Below, piece after piece: positions 7,516-32,407 of a stretch of 64,000 bases of DNA. The position numbers were made by a program, and so were the translations under genes. The notes beneath the pieces were generated by a model. That model was not told the DNA's origin, did no database searches, and saw only the letters and a program-made list of their open reading frames with translations. The stretch lies in NCBI RefSeq assembly GCF_017348835.2, contig NZ_CP072317.1. One strand, given 5' to 3'. The DNA comes from Escherichia coli. GTDB taxonomy: Bacteria; Pseudomonadota; Gammaproteobacteria; Enterobacterales; Enterobacteriaceae. Numbering within the stretch: position 1 is the stretch's first letter; every line of letters starts with the position of its first letter.

Positions 7516-8250
7516 TCAGAGAATATTTGCGATTGATTTGGCCAGTTGGTCTTCGAGAACAGGCTTCGCCTCTTCAAATTTCAGGTTAACCTTGTTCGCA
7601 TTTGAAACCACACGGGTCTGGTATTTATGCTGGTTACCTGTTTCAGTACTGGTCTGAATTTTCGCACCTGATGTGCCCTGACGCAGGGCGGCAACATTAT
7701 CCGTTGTCACCGTTGCCTTAGTACGCTCTGCAATCTGTACATCCGTGATCATGGTATAGTTCACATCTTCCACCATCGCATCTGCAGCCATACCCACCAG
7801 ACCAGCAGCAAGGCCTACACCGAGTGTGGCACCGGCAGAATTTGAGTTATAGCCGGTAATACCGGCACCTAACGCTGCACCAACTGCTGCGCCTTCATAA
7901 CCACGGTTCAGCCATCCCTGAGACTCCCGCAGATCCATCTTATCGGCCTTCAGCACATTCGCCTGAATCCAGTAGTAGGCTTTATCCGGAGAAGTCACCA
8001 CCTGATATCCTTTTGCTTTCACAGCATCAGCAATTTTGCCCTGCAGCCCACTCATGTCTTTATCAGACGTGTTTTTGATCTGCAGAAATACCGTGCGTTC
8101 GCTGGCGGGTTCAAGCCAGATGGTCTCACTCATCTGAGTCTTCACCTCAAGGTTACGCTTCTTGATTGCTGTGCTCATCGCACCACACCCTGAAAGGGCC
8201 AGAGTGGAACTGACCAGTGCAACCATCATCAATTTTTTCATTTTCATCAA
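7516..8250 (-). CDS. traT: TraT surface exclusion / serum resistance lipoprotein
   Basis: 244-aa ORF matching F-like TraT, lipoprotein signal ending LSGC. Confidence 0.95.
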
Positions 8251-8295
8251 TGTTCCTTCATATTGAATAAAACGTCATAATATACAAATTAAGAT

Positions 8296-8781
8296 TCACT
8301 CATCATATCGTTTTGAACTATAACCATATGAATTACCACCGATATCCACACCAATACCTGACATAGGTAACCCTGTTGCAGGATTAGTACGATGAAAATC
8401 CATATTATCAAAATCCAGATGCAAATCTTCATTAGTTTGTTCATTTACCTGAGATTGCATCCATTCTCTTACGCTTACACAACCACTAACTCGCCTTAAT
8501 TCGTATAGTGTACCAATGATAAAAACCATCAGGCTTAATAATGGAGAGAGTAAGGAAGATACTGGCATCGTTATATACCAAACGCCTTTACTAAACTTAA
8601 ACTCATCCGACACATTCCGTTTTTTTCGTATTTGAGAGAACAACCATATAAACAGTCCCTGCCATAGTACTATGAAGAACAGCATAAAAATTGTTTCGGC
8701 ATTCCCCCAACTAGCCAGATAACAGGCGATAAACTGTATCACCGTTACCAGAGTAATATGGGTTAAACATCTCATTATCAT
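8296..8781 (-). CDS. traS: TraS entry exclusion inner membrane protein
   Basis: 161-aa hydrophobic ORF in the traG-traT position; AT-rich, variable like known TraS. Confidence 0.6.
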   Translation of the reverse strand: MIMRCLTHITLVTVIQFIACYLASWGNAETIFMLFFIVLWQGLFIWLFSQIRKKRNVSDEFKFSKGVWYITMPVSSLLSPLLSLMVFIIGTLYELRRVSGCVSVREWMQSQVNEQTNEDLHLDFDNMDFHRTNPATGLPMSGIGVDIGGNSYGYSSKRYDE

Positions 8782-8796
8782 CTCCCAAAAACAGCA

Positions 8797-11619
8797 TTAT
8801 TGCTTATACTTATCCTGATATTCCTTTGCCCTTTTCATCAGTTCCTGTGGACTGTCAGCCCCGGGCATTCTTTCCTGAGCCGACTTTTCTTCATTATATT
8901 TATTATTCTGAGATAATGCCTCTGTTTTATGGTGATTCTGCAGTTCAGAATACTGTCCTCTTACAATATTTTCCTCGCCACGTACGCTGTTCTGAGTATC
9001 ACCTATATTCCCTTTATATTCTGTGACCATATTATCAACCTGATGTTTTACATCATTACGGATATTACTGTCCTGCGTTCTTTGATCAATAATGGCCTGA
9101 TGCCCCTGATGGTCAGCAATAATATCCTGACTGCCACCACCCGAAGGTACGCTCTCCATTCCTTTACCAATATCACCACGGGATTCCCGCCAGGCATTAT
9201 CAACACCAGGCTGTACCTGTTCCTGCACAAAAGACCAGGCCATCGCCCGACGACGTTCTGCAATCTCCGGTGAACTGGTGTTTGTCAGAATAGCTTCTGC
9301 ATCCTGTGGCGCGTGTTTCATTACATACTGTGCAAACTGTTGCGACAGGTCTTCACTCATCTGCCCACTCATGCTTTCAGTACGGGATGCCATTTCAGCA
9401 TATTCATGGCTGCGGGTCATATTCGTCGTGTACTGGTCGTAACTCTGCTTCGCTGAATTCAGGGCTGCAGACAACTGATCCACACGGGAATCAGCATTAT
9501 TGTCCGTATGGCTGCCGGACTCACTGACCTTGCGACTGGTAAAATAATCGCTGGCCTCTTTAAAGTCTTGTGTAGCTCTGGCATCGATATCATGACGAGC
9601 ATTATGGCTCGACTGAGTATTACTACTTGCCGTATGCGCATCATTATCTTCCCAATCAATACCAGCCCGACCACCACCTCTAACGCCTAATCCTCCACCA
9701 ACACCAAGAATTTTAGGTTTAACCCCCCATTCAGCATGAGCATCTCCATACATCCCGGCAGAAGCTCTCGTACTTCTGGATGCCAGTTCCTGAGTCGCCT
9801 GCTCATTACTGATATTATGCGCCTTCGCATAGCTTTCCACTGCACTGCGCATACGGCTGGCCATCATGGAGTCCTGTGCGCTCATCGTGCTGTCAGCACC
9901 ACCTGTGACAGAATCACTGCTCCCCCGGTTAGAACCAAACTGGCTGAGCGAGTTCCAGGCACTGGCAATACTGCTGCTGAACCCATGCAGGGCGCTTTCT
10001 GCTCTGTTCGACGCCTCCCGGGCCATTTCCTGTTGTGCCGCTGCAATCTGACGCGTTGCATTGATACCGACCGGTAACCGGGACATCGCCCCGCTCGCAT
10101 CCATCACCATATTACCGTCACGGGTCTGTGTGGCAGTTGCGCCACTGCCGGTCTGGTACATCATCTGACCAAACGACGTGGTGCTGTTGGTGCTCCAGCT
10201 GAAGCCGTTCACGTTTTCCGTCTGCATGTTGCCGTAGGAGTAATTACCGTCAACCACACTACCTGCCGCACTGGCAGTCGGGCTGATAGCAGAGGAAGCG
10301 AAATGGCTGTACACGCTGGAAAAACCTGCGCCAAGGCCTTTTACCATCATCCATGACAACGGGGGTATCATGACAGATATATATCCGGCAGTGGACGCCA
10401 GGTCGGAGTATTTCAGCTGTATCTGAGAGAGTTCAGAGAGCACGACCGGTGCACCATTCTGCTTTGCATAGAATGTCATGGCACTGTTCAGAATGGCATA
10501 CAGCAACGGCCAGGTCTGGAACCACATCAGAGCAAACACATAGCCTCTCAGAACAGACAGCGTCAGTCTGTTGAAGACAGCCGCCAGTACCAGGAGCGGG
10601 AAGATACCAATGGTAATGCCCACCAGAATGGTCTGCACCATCGGCAGGTTTCGCATCAGCACATGACCAATGGAGACATGTGCCAGACGCTGTTTCTCCA
10701 TCGACGAAGTCGTGGCCAGACTGACCAGGCTGGCGGTATCACCGTTACGGGCTGCATTACTGGTGATACCCTCTTTCAGGGCATTCATGGTGACGTTCTG
10801 GCGCATAATATGACTGGCAGACTGGCTGGAGCCGTAGAAATAACTGTAACTGTCACTCACCAGTTGCCTGAATAACAGGTCCGGGTCCGGTCTGCCGCCA
10901 AATATCTGCTGCACATAATAATGCCAGGTCTTGCCTCCCGTCTTTGTATCGAGATTCAGCCTGTCTTTCAGCGTGACCGACGCATCTTTACAGGTTATGA
11001 AATTATTATTGCTGTCATAAACGCCCCGTAGCGGGCTGGGCCGGGAAAAAATCAGCGTGTAGGGGTCAGCGGAGGCCATCAGGTCTTCCAGCGTGTATTT
11101 GTGGTTCAGGTAAATATCCCCCAGCACGCAGTTCTGGACGTAGTCCTGAAACAGATTGATGATTTCCGGATTCCGGGACAGAAAATCGGTGCTTTTCACA
11201 ATCAGGTTCGCCCCGAACAGCATGCCTGTCTTGCTGTAGGTGGCGCTGTCAGGCTGGGTGAATATCATCTCGTAACTGGCCACCATTGCATGCCCGATAC
11301 GGGTCGTCAGTGAAAGTGGCATCGCCAGTCCGACAGGCACATTATCCACCCGGTGAACCTGGACCAGGTCACTGTTATCAATAATCTGCACCGATGTACG
11401 GACATTAACCAGCAGGCTGATAAGCACAAACACGGCCACCCAGCCCAGCAAATCCATCACGTTGTGCCGCTGTACCCACATCACGGCCACCGCGAGAACA
11501 GACAATGTGAGCGCAATTTTTTCGATGGAATCCCACGTCCGGGTCCCCATAAAGGCGGCAATGGCGTTCAGGTTATTGCGTAACCACTCACCACCGGCAA
11601 TCACATAGACTTCATTCAC
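8797..11619 (-). CDS. traG: TraG mating pair stabilisation protein
   Basis: 940-aa ORF, N-terminal polytopic membrane domain, F-type TraG size and synteny. Confidence 0.93.
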   Translation of the reverse strand: MNEVYVIAGGEWLRNNLNAIAAFMGTRTWDSIEKIALTLSVLAVAVMWVQRHNVMDLLGWVAVFVLISLLVNVRTSVQIIDNSDLVQVHRVDNVPVGLAMPLSLTTRIGHAMVASYEMIFTQPDSATYSKTGMLFGANLIVKSTDFLSRNPEIINLFQDYVQNCVLGDIYLNHKYTLEDLMASADPYTLIFSRPSPLRGVYDSNNNFITCKDASVTLKDRLNLDTKTGGKTWHYYVQQIFGGRPDPDLLFRQLVSDSYSYFYGSSQSASHIMRQNVTMNALKEGITSNAARNGDTASLVSLATTSSMEKQRLAHVSIGHVLMRNLPMVQTILVGITIGIFPLLVLAAVFNRLTLSVLRGYVFALMWFQTWPLLYAILNSAMTFYAKQNGAPVVLSELSQIQLKYSDLASTAGYISVMIPPLSWMMVKGLGAGFSSVYSHFASSAISPTASAAGSVVDGNYSYGNMQTENVNGFSWSTNSTTSFGQMMYQTGSGATATQTRDGNMVMDASGAMSRLPVGINATRQIAAAQQEMAREASNRAESALHGFSSSIASAWNSLSQFGSNRGSSDSVTGGADSTMSAQDSMMASRMRSAVESYAKAHNISNEQATQELASRSTRASAGMYGDAHAEWGVKPKILGVGGGLGVRGGGRAGIDWEDNDAHTASSNTQSSHNARHDIDARATQDFKEASDYFTSRKVSESGSHTDNNADSRVDQLSAALNSAKQSYDQYTTNMTRSHEYAEMASRTESMSGQMSEDLSQQFAQYVMKHAPQDAEAILTNTSSPEIAERRRAMAWSFVQEQVQPGVDNAWRESRGDIGKGMESVPSGGGSQDIIADHQGHQAIIDQRTQDSNIRNDVKHQVDNMVTEYKGNIGDTQNSVRGEENIVRGQYSELQNHHKTEALSQNNKYNEEKSAQERMPGADSPQELMKRAKEYQDKYKQ

Positions 11620-17789: not shown

Positions 17790-18436
17790 TTCCCGGAATC
17801 TCCTTTCCCTGCCAGTAAATCATGAGCCACCTGCCGGCAGTCACCCGTGGCGGCCACTTTCTCCAGCGCCTGGCCGACCCGCAGGTTTCCCCGGATGATG
17901 TCGTATCCCTGACTGCAGAACACCACCAGTGCCGGTACACTGCGAATGCCGTACTGTGAAAACAGCGTCGGGTCGATCTGAACACCATCAGTCGCGCCGT
18001 CTTTCACCAGGGACAGCACGGCTTCAGCGGTGGTCTTCAGGTCATTGTTCACCATGCCCCGCAGTGTGGCGGGTATACCGTAGTGCCGGGTTTCGCCCAG
18101 CATCCGTTTCAGCCCCTCTTCGGGAATGGAAAACGACACAAAATACAGGGCACCCTGCCGGGGTTTCCCGTCCTGCGAAGCCTGCTGTTTACGAACCAGC
18201 TCATCCAGAAAATGGTTATCTGAACGCTGAAGGGGGTTTTCCAGCACCTGTTTCTCCGCCCAGGCTTTCAGCTGATGGTCAGGTTTCTCTCGCAGTTGTC
18301 TGCTTAAATTTTCCTGCTGCTTCAGGAACTGGCGGTTTTCAGTTGTGTTCACATTTTCTGAAGCATGAACAGCAAGATGCATCCCTGCTGTCAGAGCAAA
18401 AAGTGCAAATATTTTCCGGTTCATGATATTTCTCAC
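17786..18436 (-). CDS. trbC: TrbC pilus assembly protein
   Basis: 216-aa ORF with signal peptide, F TrbC synteny. Confidence 0.9.
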   Translation of the reverse strand: MRNIMNRKIFALFALTAGMHLAVHASENVNTTENRQFLKQQENLSRQLREKPDHQLKAWAEKQVLENPLQRSDNHFLDELVRKQQASQDGKPRQGALYFVSFSIPEEGLKRMLGETRHYGIPATLRGMVNNDLKTTAEAVLSLVKDGATDGVQIDPTLFSQYGIRSVPALVVFCSQGYDIIRGNLRVGQALEKVAATGDCRQVAHDLLAGKGDSGK

Positions 18437-18744
18437 TTTCTGCTATTTACAGGCATGAACTCATCAGAAAAAAGATAATTGAGAAAAACAGCCACAAACG
18501 CACATGTAAATGTCACCTTCAGATATAATCTGACAAGTGTCACTTGTTCTGATATATCTGCGTTCTTCCATTCATGAATAATTTCAGCGAGAAAACTGTC
18601 AGGTGCAAAATAAAATAATATAACGGGCACTATTACAAGACCAAAAGGAAATAATTTTAATGTTCTGCTTATCAGCCTGAGCAGTACAGCACTTATTTTC
18701 CTGAGGTGCTGAATATATTTACTGTCCATTGTTGCCATTTTCAT
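18433..18744 (-). CDS. hypothetical membrane protein between traU and trbC
   Basis: 103-aa AT-rich ORF with hydrophobic helices, translationally coupled to trbC. Confidence 0.4.
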   Translation of the reverse strand: MKMATMDSKYIQHLRKISAVLLRLISRTLKLFPFGLVIVPVILFYFAPDSFLAEIIHEWKNADISEQVTLVRLYLKVTFTCAFVAVFLNYLFSDEFMPVNSRK

Positions 18745-20389: not shown

Positions 20390-20772
20390 GGTTCCGCTCT
20401 CATTCGCCGGGCAATATCCTGCTGGATTTCCCGGGTGATATCCGGAGCCCCCTGTACCACGGCAGGCGACACCAGGATGACCGCGTGGTGTTTCTGCTGC
20501 CACGCCTGCAGGCTGGCTTCCAGTGCCGTGTTAAAACGCGCTGAAAGGGCTTTTGACTGTGCTTCTGACAGTTGTTTCTGACTGGCGCTGTCAAAAAACG
20601 CATCCACGGTCTGTTTCATGTTGAAGGCGGCAGTCACCGGTGCGTTCAGTCTGACAATGCCGTAACTGACGGCTGCGTTCAGTAACACCATTGCCAGGCA
20701 TCCCGGCACCGTCCACCACCAGTGGCTGCGTCGGGGGGCTGTAACATCCGTCGTTTTTTGCGTTGTGGTCAT
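20386..20772 (-). CDS. trbI: TrbI
   Basis: 128-aa ORF, F TrbI size and position. Confidence 0.85.
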   Translation of the reverse strand: MTTTQKTTDVTAPRRSHWWWTVPGCLAMVLLNAAVSYGIVRLNAPVTAAFNMKQTVDAFFDSASQKQLSEAQSKALSARFNTALEASLQAWQQKHHAVILVSPAVVQGAPDITREIQQDIARRMRAEP

Positions 20773-23399
20773 GCAACACTCCTGTATTTCTCATGTTCTT
20801 CCAGCCAGGCTTCCAGCGAAGCCATCTCCGGCCCTGACTTCTTCCACGCCAGCTGCCACACCGCCTCATGAATACTCAGCCCCTCTTTACGTTTCTGCTG
20901 CACAAACTCAAAATCCGGGCCGTCAGAGCTGTACATGGCGCGGCTTAACGGGTCCACAAACAGGCGGTGCCAGGAGGAATGGTTTTCCACCTGCAGCAGG
21001 AAGGAACTGAACCACTGGTCTTTGGCCGCACCAAACTTACCAATCATGTCGCGCTGCAGTGGCTGGAACTGGTCCGGATACAGCTGGTTGTATTTTGCGA
21101 ACTCCTTCGCACTCTGTTTGAGGATAATTTTGTAGGAGGAGTTACCCCATGCCGCACGGGCCGCACTGGAGGCCTTGTCAGAGTCAAAGTCGACGATGTT
21201 CTGTGTGATGGTGATATAGGCACCGGTATGACGGCGGGCGGTACGGTAACCTTTCTCAATAAACTCACCGACCTTGCGATTTTTGAAGTCCAGCAGACGC
21301 CAGCCTTCATCAATAACGTTCAGTTTCTTGAGGTTACGCGGCGTGCGGTACATCCTGTTCTCGATGTAGATAATCAGGGAGAACATCACCGCAACCAGCA
21401 GTGACGGACGGTCTTCCAGTCCGCCCAGCTCCAGCACCACCATTTTCGCATCATCCCGCAGGGACGGCTCATCGGAGTTAAAATACTGGCCGTAAGTGCC
21501 GTTGGCAGTGTACTGGTCAAGCAGCACAATCATTTCGTCCAGACGGCTGCGGATGGTCGGTGACCCGGCATACTGCTCGCTGTCACTGGCGTTTTTCAGG
21601 AAATCCACCACGTCATCAATACGTGCCCTGTTCTCTTTGGCCAGCCAGGAGGCCCTGACCGCCTGCAGCAGCAGACCTTCATGCACTTCATCCAGGTTAC
21701 CGTTGGGGCTGGCCATCACTGACAACTGGTCACGGACACGCTCCGCTGACTGGTCAATATCGGTGATGTTCGCAAACGGGTTAAAACGCAGGGTTTCACC
21801 GTCCAGATATACGCCACCCATGTTCTCACACAGGGACTTGTAGCCATCCCCCATGTCGAACACCACGGCAAAGCCCCCGGAGTCCAGCACGCTGCGGATA
21901 AGTGGCTGTATCAGCCCGGTTTTACCGGCCCCGGAGGTGCCACAGACCGCCATGTTGTAGTTGGTGTTATTCATCCCCCGGAAGAAAATATCGATAAACG
22001 CCAGCTGGTTACGGTAGGTGGGTGCCAGCAGACCTGCCGGTGTCAGGGGGTTATCCGCCACTAACGGCATCAGGTTGGCAACATTAAAGCTCTCTGCGCG
22101 CTGAACCACTCCGGCCTCTTTCAGCTGTTTAAACAACCCTTTCCCGGCCATAAAGGGCAGACAGGTCAGGAAATTGCGCATGTGGTTAAAGCGCGGTGAA
22201 ATCAGCTCAAAACCGTTTTTACGGAAGCTGTTCAGGATGTCCTGCTCCACTTCCAGCGCCGTTTCATTGTTGTCCTTGCAGAATGCTGTGATGTTGAGGA
22301 AGTAGGACACGACAGAAGACTGACCGGAGCCCAGACGCTGACGCAGTTCCCCCCACTCCTTCGCCTCTTTCTCCACGGACGGAAACCATTTGGCATAGGA
22401 GGTCTTCGACTTTTTCTCCAGGTCCATGTACTTCAGGTTGGCTTCGCTGTGGGTTTTCACCTGGTCTTCCACCACCAGAGTCAGCGTCAGGATGAACGGA
22501 CAGGAGATGGACAGTTCCGGGTTCAGCAGGTTGCTGTAGTTGTCGGCCATATTCCACAGGAAGGCGATTTCCGGGTTACGGGCCAGATGGAAATTCAGGA
22601 TACGGGCCGTGCTGTTCCTGCCGTTCTCACGCAGGCCCAGCGTCAGGTAATCAGCCCGGACATTCAGGTCAAAACTGTCCTCCACACACTGATAATTCAG
22701 ATCAGAATACGGGTCCAGCTGACGTCTTTTCGGGTACAGGGAGTCCGGGTTATGGTTAATCATCTCCCCGACAATATCGATAAAGGCCTGTGCATCCACC
22801 GTCTGTGTGGCGATACTGGCCCCCTGTAACGACGCCCGGATGATTTTCACCAGGTTTTCCATTTCCAGAATGTCAGCCCGGCTTTTTTTCTTCGAGGGAG
22901 AACAGTACGAGATAAATACCCGGTAATGGCGCAGGGTCAGGGGCAGATTCATCCCCTCCGGCAGCGGAAACTGTGTCGCTGCCGCTTTCATATAATAGGC
23001 CCGGGTAATGGCGTTAAACCGTTCAGCCTGTTCACCTGACCAGGAGAACTCACGCAGCCCGTACTCAATCCTGTCACCAACCAGCTGACTGGACATCAGA
23101 TGGATACACAACGGAATACCGCGCGGCAGTTTGGTGCGCAGCATGTGATCGAGTGCCTCCACAATGGACTTATTCGCCCCATTGATGGGAATGGCTTCCA
23201 GCATAAAGCCCATCGTGGTGTCATTCATGAACAGACCGGATTCCTGGTTGTAATCACGGTACGGCAGCAGACGGCTGAACTGCGGGAAGCTCATTTCGCC
23301 CAGAACTTCATTGGCCTTTGCGGATTCGTCAGGCAGTTTCAGTGCTGTGACGAGGGAGTTAACCGCCTGAGTGACGGCCTCAAGTGGGTTATTACTCAT
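20769..23399 (-). CDS. traC: TraC VirB4-like ATPase
   Basis: 876-aa ORF, Walker A GTSGAGKT, matches F TraC. Confidence 0.97.
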   Translation of the reverse strand: MSNNPLEAVTQAVNSLVTALKLPDESAKANEVLGEMSFPQFSRLLPYRDYNQESGLFMNDTTMGFMLEAIPINGANKSIVEALDHMLRTKLPRGIPLCIHLMSSQLVGDRIEYGLREFSWSGEQAERFNAITRAYYMKAAATQFPLPEGMNLPLTLRHYRVFISYCSPSKKKSRADILEMENLVKIIRASLQGASIATQTVDAQAFIDIVGEMINHNPDSLYPKRRQLDPYSDLNYQCVEDSFDLNVRADYLTLGLRENGRNSTARILNFHLARNPEIAFLWNMADNYSNLLNPELSISCPFILTLTLVVEDQVKTHSEANLKYMDLEKKSKTSYAKWFPSVEKEAKEWGELRQRLGSGQSSVVSYFLNITAFCKDNNETALEVEQDILNSFRKNGFELISPRFNHMRNFLTCLPFMAGKGLFKQLKEAGVVQRAESFNVANLMPLVADNPLTPAGLLAPTYRNQLAFIDIFFRGMNNTNYNMAVCGTSGAGKTGLIQPLIRSVLDSGGFAVVFDMGDGYKSLCENMGGVYLDGETLRFNPFANITDIDQSAERVRDQLSVMASPNGNLDEVHEGLLLQAVRASWLAKENRARIDDVVDFLKNASDSEQYAGSPTIRSRLDEMIVLLDQYTANGTYGQYFNSDEPSLRDDAKMVVLELGGLEDRPSLLVAVMFSLIIYIENRMYRTPRNLKKLNVIDEGWRLLDFKNRKVGEFIEKGYRTARRHTGAYITITQNIVDFDSDKASSAARAAWGNSSYKIILKQSAKEFAKYNQLYPDQFQPLQRDMIGKFGAAKDQWFSSFLLQVENHSSWHRLFVDPLSRAMYSSDGPDFEFVQQKRKEGLSIHEAVWQLAWKKSGPEMASLEAWLEEHEKYRSVA

Positions 23400-23524
23400 A
23401 TGAGTATTCCTTAGTGCGTTTAAAAAAGGAAAATATCAGTCTGTGGCCGTGGATATATCACGCAGTGCCATTCCTGAAACCACAGCACAAATAAGAGATG
23501 GAGGCTTTTAACAGGAAACCAGGA

Positions 23525-23899
23525 TTAACGTTCCTTTACTGAATGAGCATCATTTAATGCCTGAATTTGTTTTTCGCGAATCTTATTGCGCTCATTTTCT
23601 CTTACACGTTTCACCTCTGCCATTTCGTTTCTTTTTCTGCATTCTGATGCGATTTTATTTGCCTTACCAAGTGTTAAAGGTTCAGACTGATAATTAAGTG
23701 TCTCCTGAAATGCTTCTGCTGCACAGGGAGTTTCCTGTAAAATCTCTGTCAGTTGTTCTGGTGTTGCAGGTTGTTGCGCAAGGTAAACGATGTAAAAAGG
23801 AATACATACAATCATAGCCATAACGCCAACAAATATAAAAGCCAGAACAGATTTTAAATATATCGACTTCATTTCATTTTCCTTCGAAGCAGTAAGCAC
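23525..23899 (-). CDS. hypothetical membrane protein (cargo between traR and traC)
   Basis: 124-aa ORF, N-terminal TM helix plus basic coiled-coil tail, AT-rich. Confidence 0.45.
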   Translation of the reverse strand: MLTASKENEMKSIYLKSVLAFIFVGVMAMIVCIPFYIVYLAQQPATPEQLTEILQETPCAAEAFQETLNYQSEPLTLGKANKIASECRKRNEMAEVKRVRENERNKIREKQIQALNDAHSVKER

Positions 23900-24118
23900 T
23901 CATTGCCCACCACCATTTAGTGTTTCCATCACGCTGTTCAAAGGTTCATTTGTTTTAACTTCAATACACTCCCCTGTATTTCCAAAGCCCCTGCCGCCAT
24001 GTGCTTCGATTGTCCGAAGAACCTGCACGCATACGTCCGTATTTGGCATGGGTGTAATATTCCAGCTTCCGCCACCGTTAATATTTTTTATCAGCACAAG
24101 AAAAATAAAGGTATGCAT
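23900..24118 (-). CDS. hypothetical small protein (cargo between traR and traC)
   Basis: 72-aa ORF adjacent to neighbours, AT-rich. Confidence 0.35.
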   Translation of the reverse strand: MHTFIFLVLIKNINGGGSWNITPMPNTDVCVQVLRTIEAHGGRGFGNTGECIEVKTNEPLNSVMETLNGGGQ

Positions 24119-24197
24119 TCTTTATTATCTCCGCTTGTATATTAATCACTGAATATCCCTTCAGTTAACTTATGAGGTCATAAAACACTGCAGATTC

Positions 24198-24674
24198 TCA
24201 TTCGGATTTATTCCCTTCAGTAAACTTCCGAATAGTATCCTGTTCACGCTGACGGGTGGCAGACTCCTGCATTGCATCCACTTTCTCCTGCCAGAGACGC
24301 CGGATATCCTGTTCATCCCGACCAGTCAGTTTTTTACCGGACAACAAACGGTTAAGCAGTTCCTGTCTCACATCTGGTACGTCTTCAGTCAGACGCATAA
24401 GCCGGAGTAATTCCTGACGACTGAGTACCATGCGTGATTCCTCCGGTACGCTGTAATAATTAAAAATACGACTGAATACCCCACAACAGCAGGCAACGGA
24501 CAGGCACAGGGATTTCAGATACAGGCCAGAAACACAGAATGTGGCAACACCACAAAGAATAGCTATAACTAAAAATCCCTTACCCAGTGCCATACACAAA
24601 GAACCCTGTTTTCTGGATATCCGCTCATGCTCATCCAGAATAAAATCTATTTTTTCATTTTCTGATTTATGCAT
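24198..24674 (-). CDS. hypothetical membrane protein (cargo between traR and traC)
   Basis: ORF 24198..24713; probable start at internal Met; cysteine-rich TM segment. Confidence 0.45.
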   Translation of the reverse strand: MHKSENEKIDFILDEHERISRKQGSLCMALGKGFLVIAILCGVATFCVSGLYLKSLCLSVACCCGVFSRIFNYYSVPEESRMVLSRQELLRLMRLTEDVPDVRQELLNRLLSGKKLTGRDEQDIRRLWQEKVDAMQESATRQREQDTIRKFTEGNKSE

Positions 24675-24888
24675 AGTGTTTCCTCTGCCTTTCCTGATAC
24701 GCCTGACATTCAACGCACAACGTCACACCGGGAAATATTTTCCGCCGGGCTTCCGGAATAGGATTTCCGCATGCTTCACAGAGATAAACAGGAATACCAT
24801 GAACATTTATTTCCTGGCGTATCCGGTTTATTCCTGTCATGGTCAGTTGTTCTGTCACTGAATATGCTTCATCGGCTTCATCACTCAC
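24667..24888 (-). CDS. traR: TraR DksA-like zinc-finger protein
   Basis: 73-aa ORF with CxxC...CxxC motif, matches F TraR. Confidence 0.9.
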   Translation of the reverse strand: MSDEADEAYSVTEQLTMTGINRIRQEINVHGIPVYLCEACGNPIPEARRKIFPGVTLCVECQAYQERQRKHYA

Positions 24889-25022
24889 GGAATATTCCTC
24901 CCGACATGTTCTGACACGCTACCGCCCATCCCTTTTCACGCACAGGGCACTCGTTTTACAGGCGGATTTTGAATACAGAAAGCCCGCCGGCATTGCCGGC
25001 TGATATACAACTTCAGGGCCAG

Positions 25023-25538
25023 TTAATTAATACGTGGTTTTCCCCACGCAGACGGTTTAATAACAAAAAACACGCTGGATGGCTGATGATAAACATCCTG
25101 GTTATCAATATAAGGCGCTATCCATAATGCTGCCGTCTGCTCACCCGTTCTTAGCGGACGAGGAGGTGTTACCGGCGTAACTGAACTGACCGGAACAACC
25201 GTTTTCACTTCCCGGGCAGCGGTAAACAGCGGGCGTGGTGCCAGCAGTTTCTGCTCCGGATGTGCTGTCACCGCAGGTCTGCTGCCGGACGGAGTGGTCG
25301 CGGTGACGGTCTGCACCGGCATTGTCCGGAAGTTCCCTTCAGCCAGGCGCGGCAGTGATGCCGCAACCGGCTTTGCTTCTGAGGACTGCTCCAGTTTTTT
25401 GGCCTTCTCATTGGCCTGCTCCATCGTCATACAGGTATCGGATGTGGTGGCGTTACACTCAAATTCCGTATTTGTTCCTGCGCAGCCGGAAAGTAATAAG
25501 GTTCCCAGCAGAGGAATAAATAAAGAAATCTGTTTCAT
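25023..25538 (-). CDS. traV: TraV outer membrane lipoprotein
   Basis: 171-aa ORF with lipobox LSGC. Confidence 0.9.
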   Translation of the reverse strand: MKQISLFIPLLGTLLLSGCAGTNTEFECNATTSDTCMTMEQANEKAKKLEQSSEAKPVAASLPRLAEGNFRTMPVQTVTATTPSGSRPAVTAHPEQKLLAPRPLFTAAREVKTVVPVSSVTPVTPPRPLRTGEQTAALWIAPYIDNQDVYHQPSSVFFVIKPSAWGKPRIN

Positions 25539-25786
25539 TGCCCTTCTCCTTTTTTATTACTCCCCACAACAGCAGAAATTAACTCTGCTGTCAGATTTGT
25601 TTTCCCTGCACAGGGATGTCCGGAGACCACTGTATTTCCCGGAGAAGAAAATAAGCTCATCGACATTCCCTTCTTCATCACACCGACAGCAGCCATATTA
25701 AAATTGTGCGGCAATGATTCAGAACTGAACACCTTCGGAGCAGGAAGAACTATTTTTGTGGTGCAGTTACTGAGAACAGCATGCAT
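25535..25786 (-). CDS. trbG: TrbG-like protein
   Basis: Distal 83 codons (from MHAVLSN) of the 25535..25903 ORF; F TrbG is 83 aa. Confidence 0.5.
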   Translation of the reverse strand: MHAVLSNCTTKIVLPAPKVFSSESLPHNFNMAAVGVMKKGMSMSLFSSPGNTVVSGHPCAGKTNLTAELISAVVGSNKKGEGQ

Positions 25787-26429: not shown

Positions 26430-27849
26430 CCCCGCCCAGCGGGTTCTTGTCTCCGGACATAAACTGCTGCGGATTCAGATTGCCCAGCTGTTTCAGCATC
26501 TGGTCGGTGTTAAAACCGTTCAGGTGGCTTTCTGCCGAGGGAGGATTCGGCACCGGGCTTTCCGGGTTACCCTCTTCCGCTGTACTCTGTGACTGCTCCA
26601 GTGCCATTTCCTCCACGGTTTTCAGCTGGAAGCCGTCCTGGAACACCACGGTCACTTCGTTGCCCGCACCAATCGGTATCACCGGGTGATACTGTTCGGC
26701 ACGTTTGATGTAGTAGTCACTGAGCGTCTGTGCGGCTTTCGATGCGCCGCCACCGATACCCATTTTCAGGACATCACCAGCCCCGTAAGCGGCTGTGGCA
26801 CCCAGCCCGACAGCCGGTTGGGAGGCGCGCTCCATTCCCTGACCGATACCGTCAACAAATCCCGCGCCCCATGCCCAGCCGAGGATTTTGCCGTTACGCA
26901 TCACCACTTCGCCCTTGATACCGTTTTTACCCCGGAAGCTGACATGCCCCTTAATCGGCATATCAATAGTTTTGCCGTCCTTCAGGCAACTGATATTGCG
27001 GGTGCGTACAATGGCACGTTCACTGGACACATCCCCCCAGGCTTCCAGCCCCACAAAACATCCCGTTGCGTCATACGTCTTGCTGTTCGGCATTTCCACC
27101 AGGCCGGTGATACGCAACTGCATCGGCACCGTGGATTCATTACCGGTGACTGAGGCATTGGCATCCGCCCCTTCAATCAGCATGGCTTTCGCAAAACTTC
27201 CTGACGGAATGTACGGCAGCGATGGTCCCTGTTTTCCCTCATTACGGGTAAACACCTTACGCTGTATCCGGTTAGGCACCGGCACAGACTGGTACGTCAC
27301 CTGTGGTGGTGGCGTGACACCATTCCCGGGATAAAACGCCGTCGGCGGTGGAACAGCAACGCTGCCCTGCGGCGGGAAGGATACGGGGGTGTTTCCTGGC
27401 TGTGGTTCGCCTTCCGGGCCGGGCGGTGGGGCAGGCATCTGCGGTACAGGCTCACCGGTCGCCGTGACGGGATTAGCACCCAGGGCTTTTACCTGCTCTG
27501 CCAGGGCGGCATTGTCCTGTCCCAGCTTTTCAATACGACGCTGGTCATCACCGCGCTGTTTGTTCAGAACATCCAGCTCACGACGGATTTCCTCATACTG
27601 CTTCTGCATCTGCGCTGCCGTCACCTGCATCTCTGTGGTGGCATGCTGACGCACCTTGTCATCAAAGGTCGTATCCACCACACCGGTCATATCCGGCACA
27701 GGCTCCTGTTCAGCCACGGTTTCACCGTTACCGGACATGTCCACATCAGACAGATACAGTGCCCCACCAATCGCGGAGGCTGTACCGACAACCACAATCC
27801 CCAGCCACAGGTACTGCTTGCGTTTCACAATGGTATTGATACTGGCCAT
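26398..27849 (-). CDS. traB: TraB (VirB10-like)
   Basis: 483-aa ORF, proline-rich linker, matches F TraB. Confidence 0.95.
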   Translation of the reverse strand: MASINTIVKRKQYLWLGIVVVGTASAIGGALYLSDVDMSGNGETVAEQEPVPDMTGVVDTTFDDKVRQHATTEMQVTAAQMQKQYEEIRRELDVLNKQRGDDQRRIEKLGQDNAALAEQVKALGANPVTATGEPVPQMPAPPPGPEGEPQPGNTPVSFPPQGSVAVPPPTAFYPGNGVTPPPQVTYQSVPVPNRIQRKVFTRNEGKQGPSLPYIPSGSFAKAMLIEGADANASVTGNESTVPMQLRITGLVEMPNSKTYDATGCFVGLEAWGDVSSERAIVRTRNISCLKDGKTIDMPIKGHVSFRGKNGIKGEVVMRNGKILGWAWGAGFVDGIGQGMERASQPAVGLGATAAYGAGDVLKMGIGGGASKAAQTLSDYYIKRAEQYHPVIPIGAGNEVTVVFQDGFQLKTVEEMALEQSQSTAEEGNPESPVPNPPSAESHLNGFNTDQMLKQLGNLNPQQFMSGDKNPLGGDAGKEGGNGG

Positions 27850-28577
27850 CAGTTGCCCTCCCCGTCACGGATGACATACACATCCATGCGCGCACCTGCC
27901 AGTAACTGGCTGGCAGGCTGGCTGAACATCACGGCACGGGTTCCCGGCTGCCAGAAATCACTTTCCCGGATATTCAGGGCAGACAGCGTTTTATTTTCCA
28001 CGACAAAGCGGACCATCTTCAGGTGATTCCCCGTCCATACGGAATCTGCCACTGAAGACAGCCCCGCCGGGGCCTGCAGGGTTTCCTTTGTCACAGGAAC
28101 CTGATACCAGCCTGCAGGTAATTTTCCGCCACGGACAGCCTGGCTGATGGTCACAAGCAGGGATTCGTAAGGCGTGGACGTTTCCCACGCTCCGGCTTCT
28201 TCTCCGGTTCCGCGCAGGTCACTGACCAGCTGAATGGTACGCCCCGCGCCTTCACGGGGAACAGCCTGAATGGAAAGGTTCAGACCACGCTCTGTTTCCA
28301 GAATGAACGTAAAGGGCTTTTTGTTGACGGTGGCCACCACCACACCGCCGGAGGCGGTCTGCTCATTATTGGTCAGGGCACCATCCAGACTGTTCACGGC
28401 GATAATCCGGTCACCGGGAACGGTAAACAGATTCGGGCTGGTATTGCTGATGGCAATACTGGCCTGACCACCGTTCACCATTGGCACCACAGTGGGGGCC
28501 AGCGTACCGTTTGCGGCCATCACGCTGCAGGAAAAAAACAGGCCGCCGAATATTATTGCCGTATTATTTTTTCTCAT
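27849..28577 (-). CDS. traK: TraK secretin-like protein
   Basis: 242-aa ORF with signal peptide. Confidence 0.95.
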
Positions 28578-29869: not shown

Positions 29870-30097
29870 CTAAAGATCTTTAATTATCGAATCAGTTTCC
29901 TCTGCTCCCTCCTTTATTGCATCCAGATTATAAAAGTCAGGAAAACGGTTCAGATGATCACGTAACCTGACTAGCACCTCATTAGTTTTTGTTCTCCCAC
30001 TACGTTCCCGGGCACCTAAGAGCTTGTGATTAGTAGCATCGTCCAATACCAGTAAAACTTTATTGCCCGGAGCAGGCCTTATTATATTTCTGCTCAA
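29870..30097 (-). CDS. traY: TraY (short R100-type ribbon-helix-helix oriT-binding protein)
   Basis: 75-aa ORF immediately upstream of traA. Confidence 0.8.
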   Translation of the reverse strand: MSRNIIRPAPGNKVLLVLDDATNHKLLGARERSGRTKTNEVLVRLRDHLNRFPDFYNLDAIKEGAEETDSIIKDL

Positions 30098-30233
30098 GTC
30101 TCCTCCTCAGCCACTTAGATAATTAAATATAATTATACGAATCCATAAAAATAGAAACGAAAATAGAGTAAATTACATTAACAAAACAAGGTGACATAAT
30201 GTCACCTTGTTTTTAACAAAAACGAAACATCAA

Positions 30234-30905
30234 CTATTCAGCACATTTTAAAATAAAAAACAATTCATCAAAGAATAAACTATGCATCCTGCTTGTATGA
30301 AAAATCATTAACAAATCATGTTTTGAATGTATACCGAAAAACTTATACACTTCTGAAATTGCATTCCGGGAAGAACCATTAGTAATAGACAAAAGAGATG
30401 CTATCGATTCATGACAAAAACCAAATGAATAAAGAATAAAAACTTTCCATTGGATTTCCGTTGATTTGTTTTTAAATTCAAGCATTCTGTCATTTGTTAT
30501 ATTTGTACGTAATCCTCTACAATAATCCACTATCACATTAGAATTTTTGCAGAAAAAAAGCCATAAAACATTAACCACCTCCCCATATATTAATGGTATA
30601 AATTGTACCAGCCAGAGTTTATCACCTATAGCCACGCTCTGTATTTTATTCATGGACGAAGGCAAAGACATAGCATCCAGTTCTTCTCTTAAGAACGATG
30701 TAGCTACTTGTACAGGAAGGGAGTAAAACCACTCTTTGATATCAAGACTACCTATAAATTCTTTAGAGAATTTTTCATTGTAGCCGATAAAATCTCCATT
30801 AGTATTTCGAACACAAGCAGGGATTGAAAAAACATCGACAAAAAACTGTTTATCCAAATATATTTGACGTTCAGTATTAAGTTGTCTAGGATCCGTCGGA
30901 TACAT
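30234..30905 (-). CDS. traJ: TraJ transfer activator (R100-type)
   Basis: 223-aa AT-rich ORF; ATG at 30905-30903 with AGGAGG RBS. Confidence 0.85.
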
Positions 30906-30979
30906 AGGAACCTCCTCTCAAAGGATTCTATGGACAGTCGATGCGGGGAGGTCGCTCTCCCTGCATCGGCGATTTTTAA
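30902..30979 (+). ncRNA. finP: FinP antisense RNA (approximate ends)
   Basis: Antisense to traJ RBS and start; two stem-loops, second (30944-30972) followed by GATTTTT on + strand. Confidence 0.6.
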
Positions 30980-31098
30980 TATCTGTTTTAACGTGGCATT
31001 AACCACATAATTAATATAACCTTTATGTGGTTAATTGTCATCAAATTGAACCAGATCAAAATCCTGTTATTTGAAGTAAATCAACTTTTAATTCTTTT

Positions 31099-31482
31099 TT
31101 ATTCCTCATCATTTTTTGGAAAAAATCGTTCCATCTCAGATGACACCTTCTCACGAATATCTTCAACCATATTGGCATATTCAAACTTTGGATTCCCGGA
31201 GACATGGGGACTTAGAGACTCAATACCCAAAATTTTCGCTACTGATGACTGTGTTTTTACAACACATTCAAGAAGAAGTTTATTAAACTCTGTCTGATTA
31301 AACGCAGACTCTTTACGCTCCATCTGAGCCTCATATACACGAAGCCCCAGTTCAAGAAGCATTGAAGCTGTTCCCGAAACACTTATATCTTTATCTCTTG
31401 CCCCCTCCTGACGACGCTGTTCAACTATCGCATTTACTTTATCATAGACATCATTACTGATATACAAAATTACTCTGGCCAT
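31099..31482 (-). CDS. traM: TraM relaxosome accessory protein
   Basis: ORF 31099..31584; start set at MARVILYISND to give 127 aa as in F TraM. Confidence 0.9.
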   Translation of the reverse strand: MARVILYISNDVYDKVNAIVEQRRQEGARDKDISVSGTASMLLELGLRVYEAQMERKESAFNQTEFNKLLLECVVKTQSSVAKILGIESLSPHVSGNPKFEYANMVEDIREKVSSEMERFFPKNDEE

Positions 31483-31599
31483 AAGATAAAACCTTTCATT
31501 ATTAAGCAATGAACTTTTCACTATAAATATGCATATAGTGTTTACAAGTAAGAAAGACACTCCTAGCAGCGCCTCTAGGATCATCCTATAAAAAAATGC

Positions 31600-31870
31600 G
31601 ATCCGGCGCTAGGGGCGTCCCTAATATATATCAATGTTTTTCATGAAAATTGTCAGTACTGATCCTAATAAGAGTCGCTATAGGGTCGTAACAGGATCGC
31701 CAACGACTCTCTATTTAATAATTCAGAATTATTAAATATAAATAGCGTTTGTTAATTACATGATTTAAAACGTAAATCAGCAAAAACTTGTTTTTGCGTA
31801 GTGTGTGGTGCTTTTGGTGGTGAGAACCACCAACCTGTTGAGCCTTTTTGTGGAGTGGGTTAAATTATTT
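31600..31870 (+). other. oriT: oriT, nic within GTGTGT/GGTGC at about 31806/31807 on + strand
   Basis: Sequence TTTGCGTAGTGTGTGGTGCTTTTGGTGGTGAGAACCACCAACCTGTTGAG matches F/R100 oriT core; lies between traM and orf169. Confidence 0.8.
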
Positions 31871-31897
31871 ACGGATAAAGTCACCAGAGGTGGAAAA

Positions 31898-32407
31898 ATG
31901 AAAAAATGGATGTTAGCAATCTGCCTGATGTTTATAAATGGGATCTGCGAAGCCGCCGATTGCTTTGATCTTGCAGGTCGGGATTACAAAATAGACCCGG
32001 ATTTACTGAGAGCGATATCATGGAAAGAATCCCGTTACCGGGTTAATGCCATCGGTATTAATCCGGTAACGGGATATGGCAGCGGACTGATGCAGGTAGA
32101 TTCCCAGCATTTTAACGAACTGGCCCGCTATGGAATTAAGCCGGAACATCTGACAACAGATCCCTGTATGAACATTTATACCGGTGCTTATTATCTGGCA
32201 ATAGCCTTTAAAAAATGGGGCGTCTCCTGGGAGGCCGTTGGTGCATACAATGCCGGATTCAGGAAGACCGAACGCCAGAACCAGAGACGTCTTGCCTACG
32301 CATCAGAGGTTTACCGGATTTATACCTGGATAAAGAGCAGTAAAGGCATCCGGGTTCCGACCACGAAGAAATCACTTTCCCAAATTAACAGTGTGCAGAA
32401 AAATTAA
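31898..32407 (+). CDS. lytic transglycosylase (F orf169 / gene X family)
   Basis: ORF 31805..32407; start at [10 protein letters not shown] gives 169 aa with signal peptide and SLT-like motifs. Confidence 0.85.

Follow-up and report, generated by a model that had tools for sequence, protein, structure and literature searches.

What lies between traR and traC in the transfer (tra) operon of F-like plasmids, and which arrangement of this interval came first? The question is raised by a 64,000-nucleotide stretch of Escherichia coli DNA (contig NZ_CP072317.1 of assembly GCF_017348835.2), hereafter the window, in which three open reading frames (ORFs) separate the two genes on the minus strand: ORF-A (24198-24674), ORF-B (23900-24118), and ORF-C (23525-23872). 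The original prediction, made from the sequence alone, regarded them as AT-rich cargo inserted into the canonical F order traV-traR-traC. The comparisons described here indicate the reverse, namely that the block is older than the F arrangement and that F arose by deletion. We describe the R100-type interval as a set of three conserved, dispensable accessory genes, with ORF-A as a proposed membrane adaptor and ORF-B and ORF-C as proposed auxiliaries of the envelope or pilus. For this statement as a whole our confidence is about even, and it is far lower for any specific role of the three proteins.

The traR-traC junction in F

In F (NC_002483), a gap of 160 bp separates traR from traC. Aligned to the window, F continues to match beyond the traR stop codon and keeps the first ~35 codons of ORF-A in frame (MHKSVAEHSDLIPDEHEWIFRKQ..., E = 4e-11 against the ORF-A family profile). 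The encoded stub reads MHKSVAEHSDLIPDEHEWIFRKQKSLYM... and ends in a 1-nt frameshift, after which a stretch that resembles the first helix of the protein (GNGALITGIPFMATAF...), similar to family alleles, follows in the shifted frame. The F sequence then jumps to ~14 nt upstream of the traC start, and ~1.1 kb is lost. The in-frame stub, the frameshift, and the truncation together identify F as a deletion derivative and the F order as the deleted state, so the polarity implied by the word "inserted" was wrong. The ORF after traR in R100 has been named "YfhA", with "no similar ORF in F" (PMC2762410). The presence of a yfhA pseudogene in F may be new, although Cox & Schildbach 2017, who compared R1, F, and R100, may already note it.

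A presence/absence survey, which had been proposed as a check, covered the plasmids in PLSDB. The F-type junction was found at a coverage of at least 80% in 2,229 plasmids. The traR-traC query of the window was covered to at least 80% in 1,167 of the 3,556 matching records, and the ORF block alone in 1,030. Since both junction types are numerous, both haplotypes are common. In complete E. coli genomes, the block was covered to at least 80% in 629 of 5,426, and 1,063 of the 1,065 matching places were on plasmids. Over the 1.65 kb from traR to traC, the window matches pC15-1a (NC_005327) and many IncFII plasmids of E. coli, Klebsiella, Shigella, and Citrobacter with 100% identity. Hundreds of identical copies have unbroken reading frames and are annotated "hypothetical protein". 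As such the block is already known; it has been catalogued since the R100 sequence and is listed as hypothetical in hundreds of records.

Gene boundaries, composition, and expression signals

The ORF list confirmed three ORFs between traR and traC at the predicted places, but the predicted lengths were only partly correct. The longest frames span 24198-24713 (171 aa, TTG start), 23900-24118 (72 aa), and 23525-23899 (124 aa, GTG start), all on the minus strand. Family alignments and RefSeq annotation place the conserved start of ORF-A at ATG 24674 (MHKSENEK, 158 aa) instead of TTG 24713, and that of ORF-C at ATG 23872 (MKSIYLK, 115 aa) instead of GTG 23899; the 72 aa of ORF-B stand. The RefSeq proteins are WP_000549587 (ORF-A), WP_000556745 (ORF-B), and WP_000836682 (ORF-C). 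ORF-A corresponds to yfhA/yfiA of R100, and the name "yfiA" was found in one GenBank record. ORF-B has the position of R100 yfiB and takes this name by position only, while ORF-C is called "YfiC protein" in UniRef.

The overlap of ORF-A with the traR stop codon, which had also been predicted, measures 8 nt from the conserved ATG (ATGCATAA). ORF-A and ORF-B are separated by a spacer of 79 nt (24119-24197, minus strand) with a GGAG ribosome-binding site upstream of ORF-B. A further spacer of 125 nt (23400-23524, minus strand) precedes traC and holds its ribosome-binding site; F keeps only the last ~14 nt of this spacer. A Shine-Dalgarno-like sequence is present 5' of each of the three conserved starts. 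The surrounding tra operon lies on the minus strand of the window in the order traK (27849-28577), traB, traP, trbD, traV (25023-25538), traR (24667-24888, 73 aa, GTG start), and then traC (20769-23399, 876 aa), the downstream edge of the block. Plus-strand ORFs of 46-106 aa also overlap the block, and the pattern of constraint matches the minus-strand frames.

The block is lower in GC content than the flanking tra genes, as originally stated, and the same is true of GC at third codon positions (GC3). The GC values are 0.449 for ORF-A, 0.434 for ORF-B, and 0.371 for ORF-C (GC3 0.415, 0.397, and 0.267, respectively), compared to 0.543 for traC (GC3 0.69), 0.523 for traV, and 0.579 for traB. The gene traR is equally AT-rich (0.455), and the low-GC island therefore begins at traR and not downstream of it. 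Other low-GC pockets (0.34-0.40) of the window are found at 8001-9000, 30001-32000, 48001-51000, and 56001-58000. Another AT-rich accessory ORF (18433-18744, minus strand, GC 0.35), of 101-103 aa and with two hydrophobic segments, separates traU from trbC. Its product is the same as R100 WP_000224416, and F has just an 8-nt gap at this place; to judge by this alignment, F is also without the R100-type gene between traU and trbC.

No excess of promoter- or terminator-like sites was detected across 23000-25600, where they were fewer or no more frequent than in shuffled sequence. No promoter or terminator was called in the 79-nt spacer that separates ORF-A from ORF-B. The 125 nt that precede traC folded no better than shuffles (z = -0.02), and an Rfam search of it was negative. 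Because the genes share one strand, are joined by short spacers or an overlap, have ribosome-binding sites, and show no such excess, co-transcription within the long tra transcript is the economical reading. The three genes are thus very probably co-transcribed with tra, and the co-expression assumed in the original prediction is retained.

ORF-A and the YfhA/YafA family

A search of 5.8 billion proteins placed 149 clusters in the ORF-A family. A profile search among 1.8 billion proteins gave 107 representatives at 50% identity, and all 18 of the 18 sequences retrieved have the C-terminal motif. For each of the three proteins of the block, ~80-150 database cluster relatives were found. The ORF-A family is small and nearly all of its members are in mobile elements of Enterobacteriaceae. 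By tblastn it is present in 3,146 PLSDB plasmids, 96% of which are predicted to be conjugative.

Members of the family share the N-terminal motif M(H)KSxAEKIDxILDEH, in which I12, L13, D14, E15, and H16 are invariant in 41 sequences and which is also present in IncI1 YafA and in divergent members. In ORF-A, the conserved N-terminal helix is EKIDFILDEHE. It is followed by two hydrophobic helices (hydropathy windows at residues 23-71) and then by LLNRLLSGKxLTGRDExxIxxLW, with columns that are invariant or nearly so. The conserved C-terminal three-helix domain of ORF-A reads LLNRLLSGKKLTGRDE..IRRLW, and the C-terminal consensus across the family is SRQxLLxLMRLTEDVPDxRQELLNRLLSGKKLTGRDExDIRRLW. 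By eye, the segment ELLNRLLSGKKLTGRDEQDIRRL resembles an SAP/HeH nucleic-acid-binding motif; searches for SAP, HeH, and Rho_N gave no support to this candidate and it was rejected.

The hydrophobic hairpin of ORF-A has Lys/Arg on both outer sides and a connecting loop of 7 residues, and both termini are therefore predicted to be cytoplasmic. On these features, ORF-A is a predicted N-in/C-in two-helix hairpin of the inner membrane. The AlphaFold model is all-helical with a pLDDT (predicted local distance difference test) of 79, and the C-terminal domain reaches about 90. The original prediction of membrane proteins agrees with these two helices and with a single N-terminal helix in ORF-C.

The closest known system outside the F-like plasmids is YafA of IncI1 plasmids (ColIb-P9/pCol1B9, pESBL), encoded beside yafB/fopA. 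This homologue of ORF-A shows 36-39% identity over the full length and has the N-terminal motif, the two hydrophobic helices, and LLNRL(F/L)SGK.(L/M)TGRDE in common with it. It differs in that its gene is outside the transfer operon, beside the gene of a FinO-domain RNA chaperone and with no TraR nearby, and in its longer C-terminal tail. The function of YafA has been described as unknown (PMC7491321). The literature that was searched offers these proteins by name only, as "conserved hypothetical YfhA" and as "YafA, unknown function". The yagA-fopA(yafB)-yafA module is also present on an IncFIA/FIB plasmid beside the colicin Ia gene (L025 1643-4495), from which it follows that the ORF-A homologue travels with fopA as a unit.

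Further homologues are one IncI2 gene, one gene of an integrative and conjugative element (ICE), and genes on IncX-like plasmids. On the latter, a NusG-like gene and a gene for a 74-aa protein precede the homologue, which is itself located directly upstream of SLT/virB1-virB3-virB4. Three such loci (L013 5179-6829, L009 1894-3272, and L014 1303-2953) have a NusG-like gene, a protein of 74-88 aa that looks ribbon-helix-helix-like by eye, the ORF-A homologue, and then SLT/virB1. A class II holin was considered on account of this position before SLT/virB1. It is not supported in the F-like setting, where the plasmids have no adjacent lysin; a conserved cytoplasmic domain of 80 residues is atypical, and no PHROG holin family matched. 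The family adjoins a transcription or RNA regulator in three plasmid groups (TraR, the NusG-like protein, and the FinO-domain protein FopA), which could be coincidence. A few TraR::ORF-A fusions in databases (P0041, P0042, and P0099; PF01258 plus ORF-A, 148-229 aa) probably arose as artefacts of frameshifting or sequencing where the two genes overlap by 8 nt. The recognition of ORF-A (YfhA/YfiA), IncI1 YafA, and the IncI2, IncX-like, and ICE relatives as one family may be new.

Because homologues of ORF-A are found repeatedly inside or beside type IV secretion system (T4SS) operons of several types, "cargo" is a poor label for the block. The protein families are almost confined to conjugative plasmids, and the block has no insertion sequence (IS) or recombination boundaries of its own. 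No cargo or defence domain was found, nor any flanking IS or integrase in the annotated copies, apart from secondary IS insertions inside the block. The genes are tied to conjugative elements.

Recombination and selection within the block

Plasmid R100 (NC_002134) carries yfhA, yfiA, yfiB, and yfiC and is like the window in gene content. Its ORF-B and ORF-C proteins are 100% identical to those of the window and have the same accessions (WP_000556745 and WP_000836682). R100 has two tandem ORF-A paralogues, of 137 and 157 aa, whereas the window has one. Residues 1-130 of the window protein equal R100 copy 1 and its tail equals copy 2. Identity between the window and R100 is 100% from traK to ORF-A codon 130 and 97.7% from there to traC, and this drop marks a recombination breakpoint inside ORF-A (window 24286-24674, minus strand). 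The last residues of R100 copy 1 are the C-terminal tail of TraR (QETQRKHYA), which places the start of the duplicated unit within the 3' end of traR.

The ratio of nonsynonymous to synonymous substitution rates (dN/dS) was estimated against homologues on other plasmids. It is 0.04-0.20 for ORF-B, the most strongly constrained of the three, 0.21-0.73 for ORF-C, and 0.28-0.79 for ORF-A overall. Within ORF-A, it is ~0.37 in the cytoplasmic N-terminal part (dS ~0.45), 1.1-1.2 in the membrane hairpin (dS ~0.55), and 0.20-0.26 in the C-terminal part (dS ~0.10-0.2). ORF-A alleles fall into mosaic classes at the hairpin, and the tandem copies of R100 and p72 differ mainly there. Judged by these rates, the hairpin is an old, mosaic cassette, essentially unconstrained or diversifying, within a conserved frame. 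This pattern, a hypervariable hairpin as opposed to constrained cytoplasmic parts, may be new.

Such a pattern would be expected if ORF-A were a specificity determinant in plasmid competition, either exclusion or immunity-like, with the variable hairpin recognizing a variable membrane target. The hairpin dN/dS of 1.1-1.2 at a dS of ~0.55, the mosaic allele classes, and the tandem copies that differ chiefly in the hairpin all fit this proposal. TraS of F-like plasmids is comparable as a small, hydrophobic inner-membrane protein that is strongly allele-variable within a conserved operon. However, a ratio near 1 in hydrophobic helices is equally given by relaxed constraint, and the known exclusion genes of F, traS and traT, are elsewhere in the operon. 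ORF-A also differs from TraS in gene position (traS is between traG and traT), in its large conserved cytoplasmic domains, and in sequence, with no similarity between the two. Furthermore, neither PADLOC nor any other family library gave a match for ORF-A, and transposon sequencing (TnSeq) of pESBL showed no effect for the IncI1 homologue. We regard a role in plasmid competition as very improbable.

The rates outside the hairpin show that all three are genuine genes under purifying selection. They also contradict the proposal that the genes are functionless hitch-hikers or decaying remnants, kept only because they sit in an essential operon. Repeated loss is in keeping with decay and is seen in the F-type deletion, in partial deletions in p6-Pyelo_1, in the unannotated ORF-B of pGZM7d, and in IS insertions. 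In otherwise identical IncFII plasmids, ISKpn26 is inserted between ORF-B and ORF-C, or IS903B cuts the 3' end of ORF-B; these sites (L026 1045-2025 and L027 971-1939) correspond to ~23873-23920 of the window. Against decay stand the purifying selection, notably for ORF-B (0.04-0.20) and for those domains of ORF-A that are cytoplasmic, the retention of the genes in E. coli-, Salmonella-, and Klebsiella-type plasmids and in different plasmid groups, and the intact frames in hundreds of identical copies. This makes functionless passengers the least credible of the explanations considered, with very little probability left to them.

ORF-B, ORF-C, and the architecture of the traV-traC interval

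ORF-B has a predicted strand-strand-helix-strand-helix fold, two mostly conserved Cys residues (30 and 51), and no hydrophobic helix, and is probably a small soluble alpha/beta protein according to this model. Its family is present in 3,602 PLSDB plasmids (tblastn), and that of ORF-C in 3,336; 96-97% are predicted to be conjugative in either case. A second ORF-B profile match in the window proved to be an overlapping alternative frame that was reached via frameshifted database variants.

ORF-C has a single N-terminal hydrophobic helix preceded by K2 and K7. After this anchor comes an acidic segment with C50 and C78, and then a basic charged helix with a net charge of +5, the putative coiled coil of the original prediction. 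ORF-C has all the features of the YfiC family, namely the anchor, the segment QQPATPEQL, and a helical hairpin with a Cys on either side; C50 and C78 are among 30 invariant columns. A Klebsiella homologue (33% identity, E = 5e-11) keeps both Cys and the motif PLTL..A.KIA..C. ORF-C is therefore predicted to have its N-terminus inside and a disulfide-stapled helical C-domain in the periplasm.

The architecture of the traV-traC interval was compared in about a dozen loci. Plasmid p72 has the order A-A-B-X-C, the X gene encoding an anchored protein of 134 aa with a pair of Cys residues. The order in pGZM7d is A-(B)-C, with ORF-B unannotated, and in p6-Pyelo_1 it is A-B-C with an internal deletion in C. 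Plasmid pSLT has ORF-A and an unrelated 87-aa hydrophobic ORF, and three divergent F-like contigs (L008, L016, and L023) have traR followed by ORF-A. The Klebsiella IncFII plasmid pKP3295-2 is without traR and ORF-A and carries seven small ORFs, including ORF-B (72% identity), an ORF-C homologue, and two X-like genes. Most of its traV-traC ORFs (L006 1519-3948) are membrane-anchored, several have conserved Cys pairs, and none matched NCBIfam.

ORF-A is directly 3' of traR in five sampled F-like lineages, with a start/stop overlap in four. The two genes are adjacent with an overlap of 8-14 nt in the window, R100, pSLT, L008, and L016, and are 13 nt apart in L023. All sampled F-like loci that have traR show the two genes side by side. 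Homologues of ORF-B and ORF-C are found in the same interval of distant Klebsiella F-type plasmids and are therefore old residents of it. From these comparisons, the interval consists of two evolutionary modules, [traR + ORF-A] and [ORF-B +/- the 134-aa X + ORF-C]. The traR-traC interval behaves as a plastic hotspot of small envelope genes, and the conserved, apparently translationally coupled traR-yfhA module may be new.

Position and Cys pairs also bear on a structural explanation, in which the F-type machine or pilus would use all three proteins as auxiliary parts, for its structure or its assembly, like TrbI, TrbE, TraP, and TrbD, and in which they would matter only under natural conditions, for example with certain recipients, on surfaces, or in the gut. 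The genes lie between traV and traC, where the operon encodes pilus assembly, and ORF-B and ORF-C keep this position in F-like plasmids of both the E. coli and the Klebsiella type. The products of ORF-C and of the related X genes are anchored and have conserved Cys pairs, as expected of periplasmic proteins, and homologues of ORF-A adjoin virB1-virB4. However, none of the three is similar to any Tra/Trb protein in the window or in family libraries. ORF-A accompanies three mating-pair-formation types that are unrelated to one another, and it is also found away from transfer operons (IncI1 yafA beside fopA); F transfers at high frequency without the three genes. Machine parts in this sense are rather unlikely.

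Small F tra genes such as traR, trbA, trbD, trbE, trbG, trbH, trbJ, and artA offer a more general comparison. These genes are short, and their products are often membrane-associated; they alternate with essential genes of pilus assembly on the same long transcript and are dispensable for laboratory transfer (Frost et al. 1994; PMC5102898). They have no sequence relationship to the block, and the block is absent from F.

Accessory genes and their possible roles

The original prediction of non-core genes is borne out. The three proteins match no Tra/Trb model and have no paralogue among the 480 ORFs of the window, and F holds a frameshifted ORF-A stub and neither ORF-B nor ORF-C. The genes are conserved, but they are not conserved core tra genes with known roles, the outcome that would have spoken against the original prediction.

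Transfer does not depend on these genes, at least in the F-type and IncI1 settings, because F-type plasmids do without the block and IncI1 YafA is non-essential in TnSeq. In the pESBL experiment, the probability was 0.96 that YafA is non-essential and 0.00 that it is needed for transfer (PMC4288162). The IS elements between or in ORF-B and ORF-C of otherwise identical plasmids were also counted for dispensability.

We propose the following mechanism. The three genes would be read through from the tra promoter PY within the long tra transcript, and ORF-A would be translated by coupling to traR via the 8-nt overlap. The two helices of the protein would form a hairpin in the inner membrane, and its two conserved ends would face the cytoplasm. 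Anchored in this way, it would most likely serve as an adaptor for a partner in the cytoplasm, which could be TraR or a conserved host factor, and would thereby tune the response of the donor to making a secretion machine. ORF-C would be anchored by its N-terminus in the inner membrane and expose a small disulfide-stapled helical domain in the periplasm, and ORF-B would be a small soluble alpha/beta protein. Both would most likely serve as non-essential auxiliaries of F-type envelope or pilus assembly. All three proteins would then be conditionally useful accessories rather than parts of the machine.

Several points weigh against this proposal. No homology gives any of the three a function: searches of Pfam, NCBIfam, PHROGs, and PADLOC returned no significant match, and PDB sequence-profile searches were likewise negative. 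Nine orphan proteins encoded nearby in the Klebsiella, pSLT, and IncX-like loci were likewise without an NCBIfam match, and fold searches with the three proteins gave generic helical or ferredoxin-like matches only. The two Cys of ORF-B would suit a periplasmic protein, yet no signal peptide is recognisable. Homologues of ORF-A on IncI1, IncI2, and IncX-like plasmids have no neighbouring TraR, and 2,229 F-type plasmids have TraR without ORF-A, so a strict partnership with TraR is not required in either direction. Transcription, translation, and topology are predictions from the sequence.

In a narrower explanation, ORF-A would be a membrane-anchored partner or antagonist of TraR, kept at a fixed ratio by translational coupling and sequestering or releasing TraR, with ORF-B and ORF-C as unrelated neighbours. 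TraR is a regulator that acts via RNA polymerase's secondary channel. The adjacency and overlap of traR and ORF-A persist while ORF-A identity drops to 24-47%, both genes are low in GC, and both are absent from the sampled Klebsiella F-type plasmid. The constrained parts of ORF-A are its cytoplasmic parts. A comparison may be drawn with the RseA-type anti-sigma tether of sigma-E, also a small inner-membrane protein with a conserved cytoplasmic domain, encoded directly after and coupled to a transcription regulator. ORF-A differs from RseA in having no homology to it, a two-helix hairpin in place of a single span, and no periplasmic sensing domain, and its binding to TraR is putative. Overproduction of TraR slows growth, and no transfer role for TraR was seen in F, which is without an intact ORF-A (PMC2613031). 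Nevertheless, the homologues on IncI1, IncI2, and IncX-like plasmids and on the ICE without a TraR gene nearby, and the F-type plasmids that have TraR alone, leave this specific partnership unlikely. The adaptor proposed above leaves the partner of ORF-A as either TraR or a host factor.

Implications for F-like plasmids

Resistance and virulence genes are carried to a large extent by F-like plasmids, for which F serves as the textbook model. The traV-traR-traC order given in textbooks is the result of a deletion. Conserved, selected, uncharacterised small envelope genes are present at this place in about one third of the F-like plasmids of the E. coli type and, in part, in most F-type plasmids of Klebsiella. 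If ORF-A works with TraR or a host factor, conclusions on TraR and donor stress that are based on F may not transfer to clinical IncFII plasmids.

A further suggestion, which we consider doubtful, is that the traR-yfhA pair works as a two-component module by which the making of the secretion machine is coupled to reprogramming of RNA polymerase, with YfhA as the natural membrane partner of TraR. If so, F, the basis of essentially all work on TraR, would be a natural yfhA-null as well as a finO-null mutant, which would account for the fact that no conjugation role for TraR was found. The YfhA/YafA family would then represent membrane adaptors that are widespread on plasmids and have a conserved host target in the cytoplasm.

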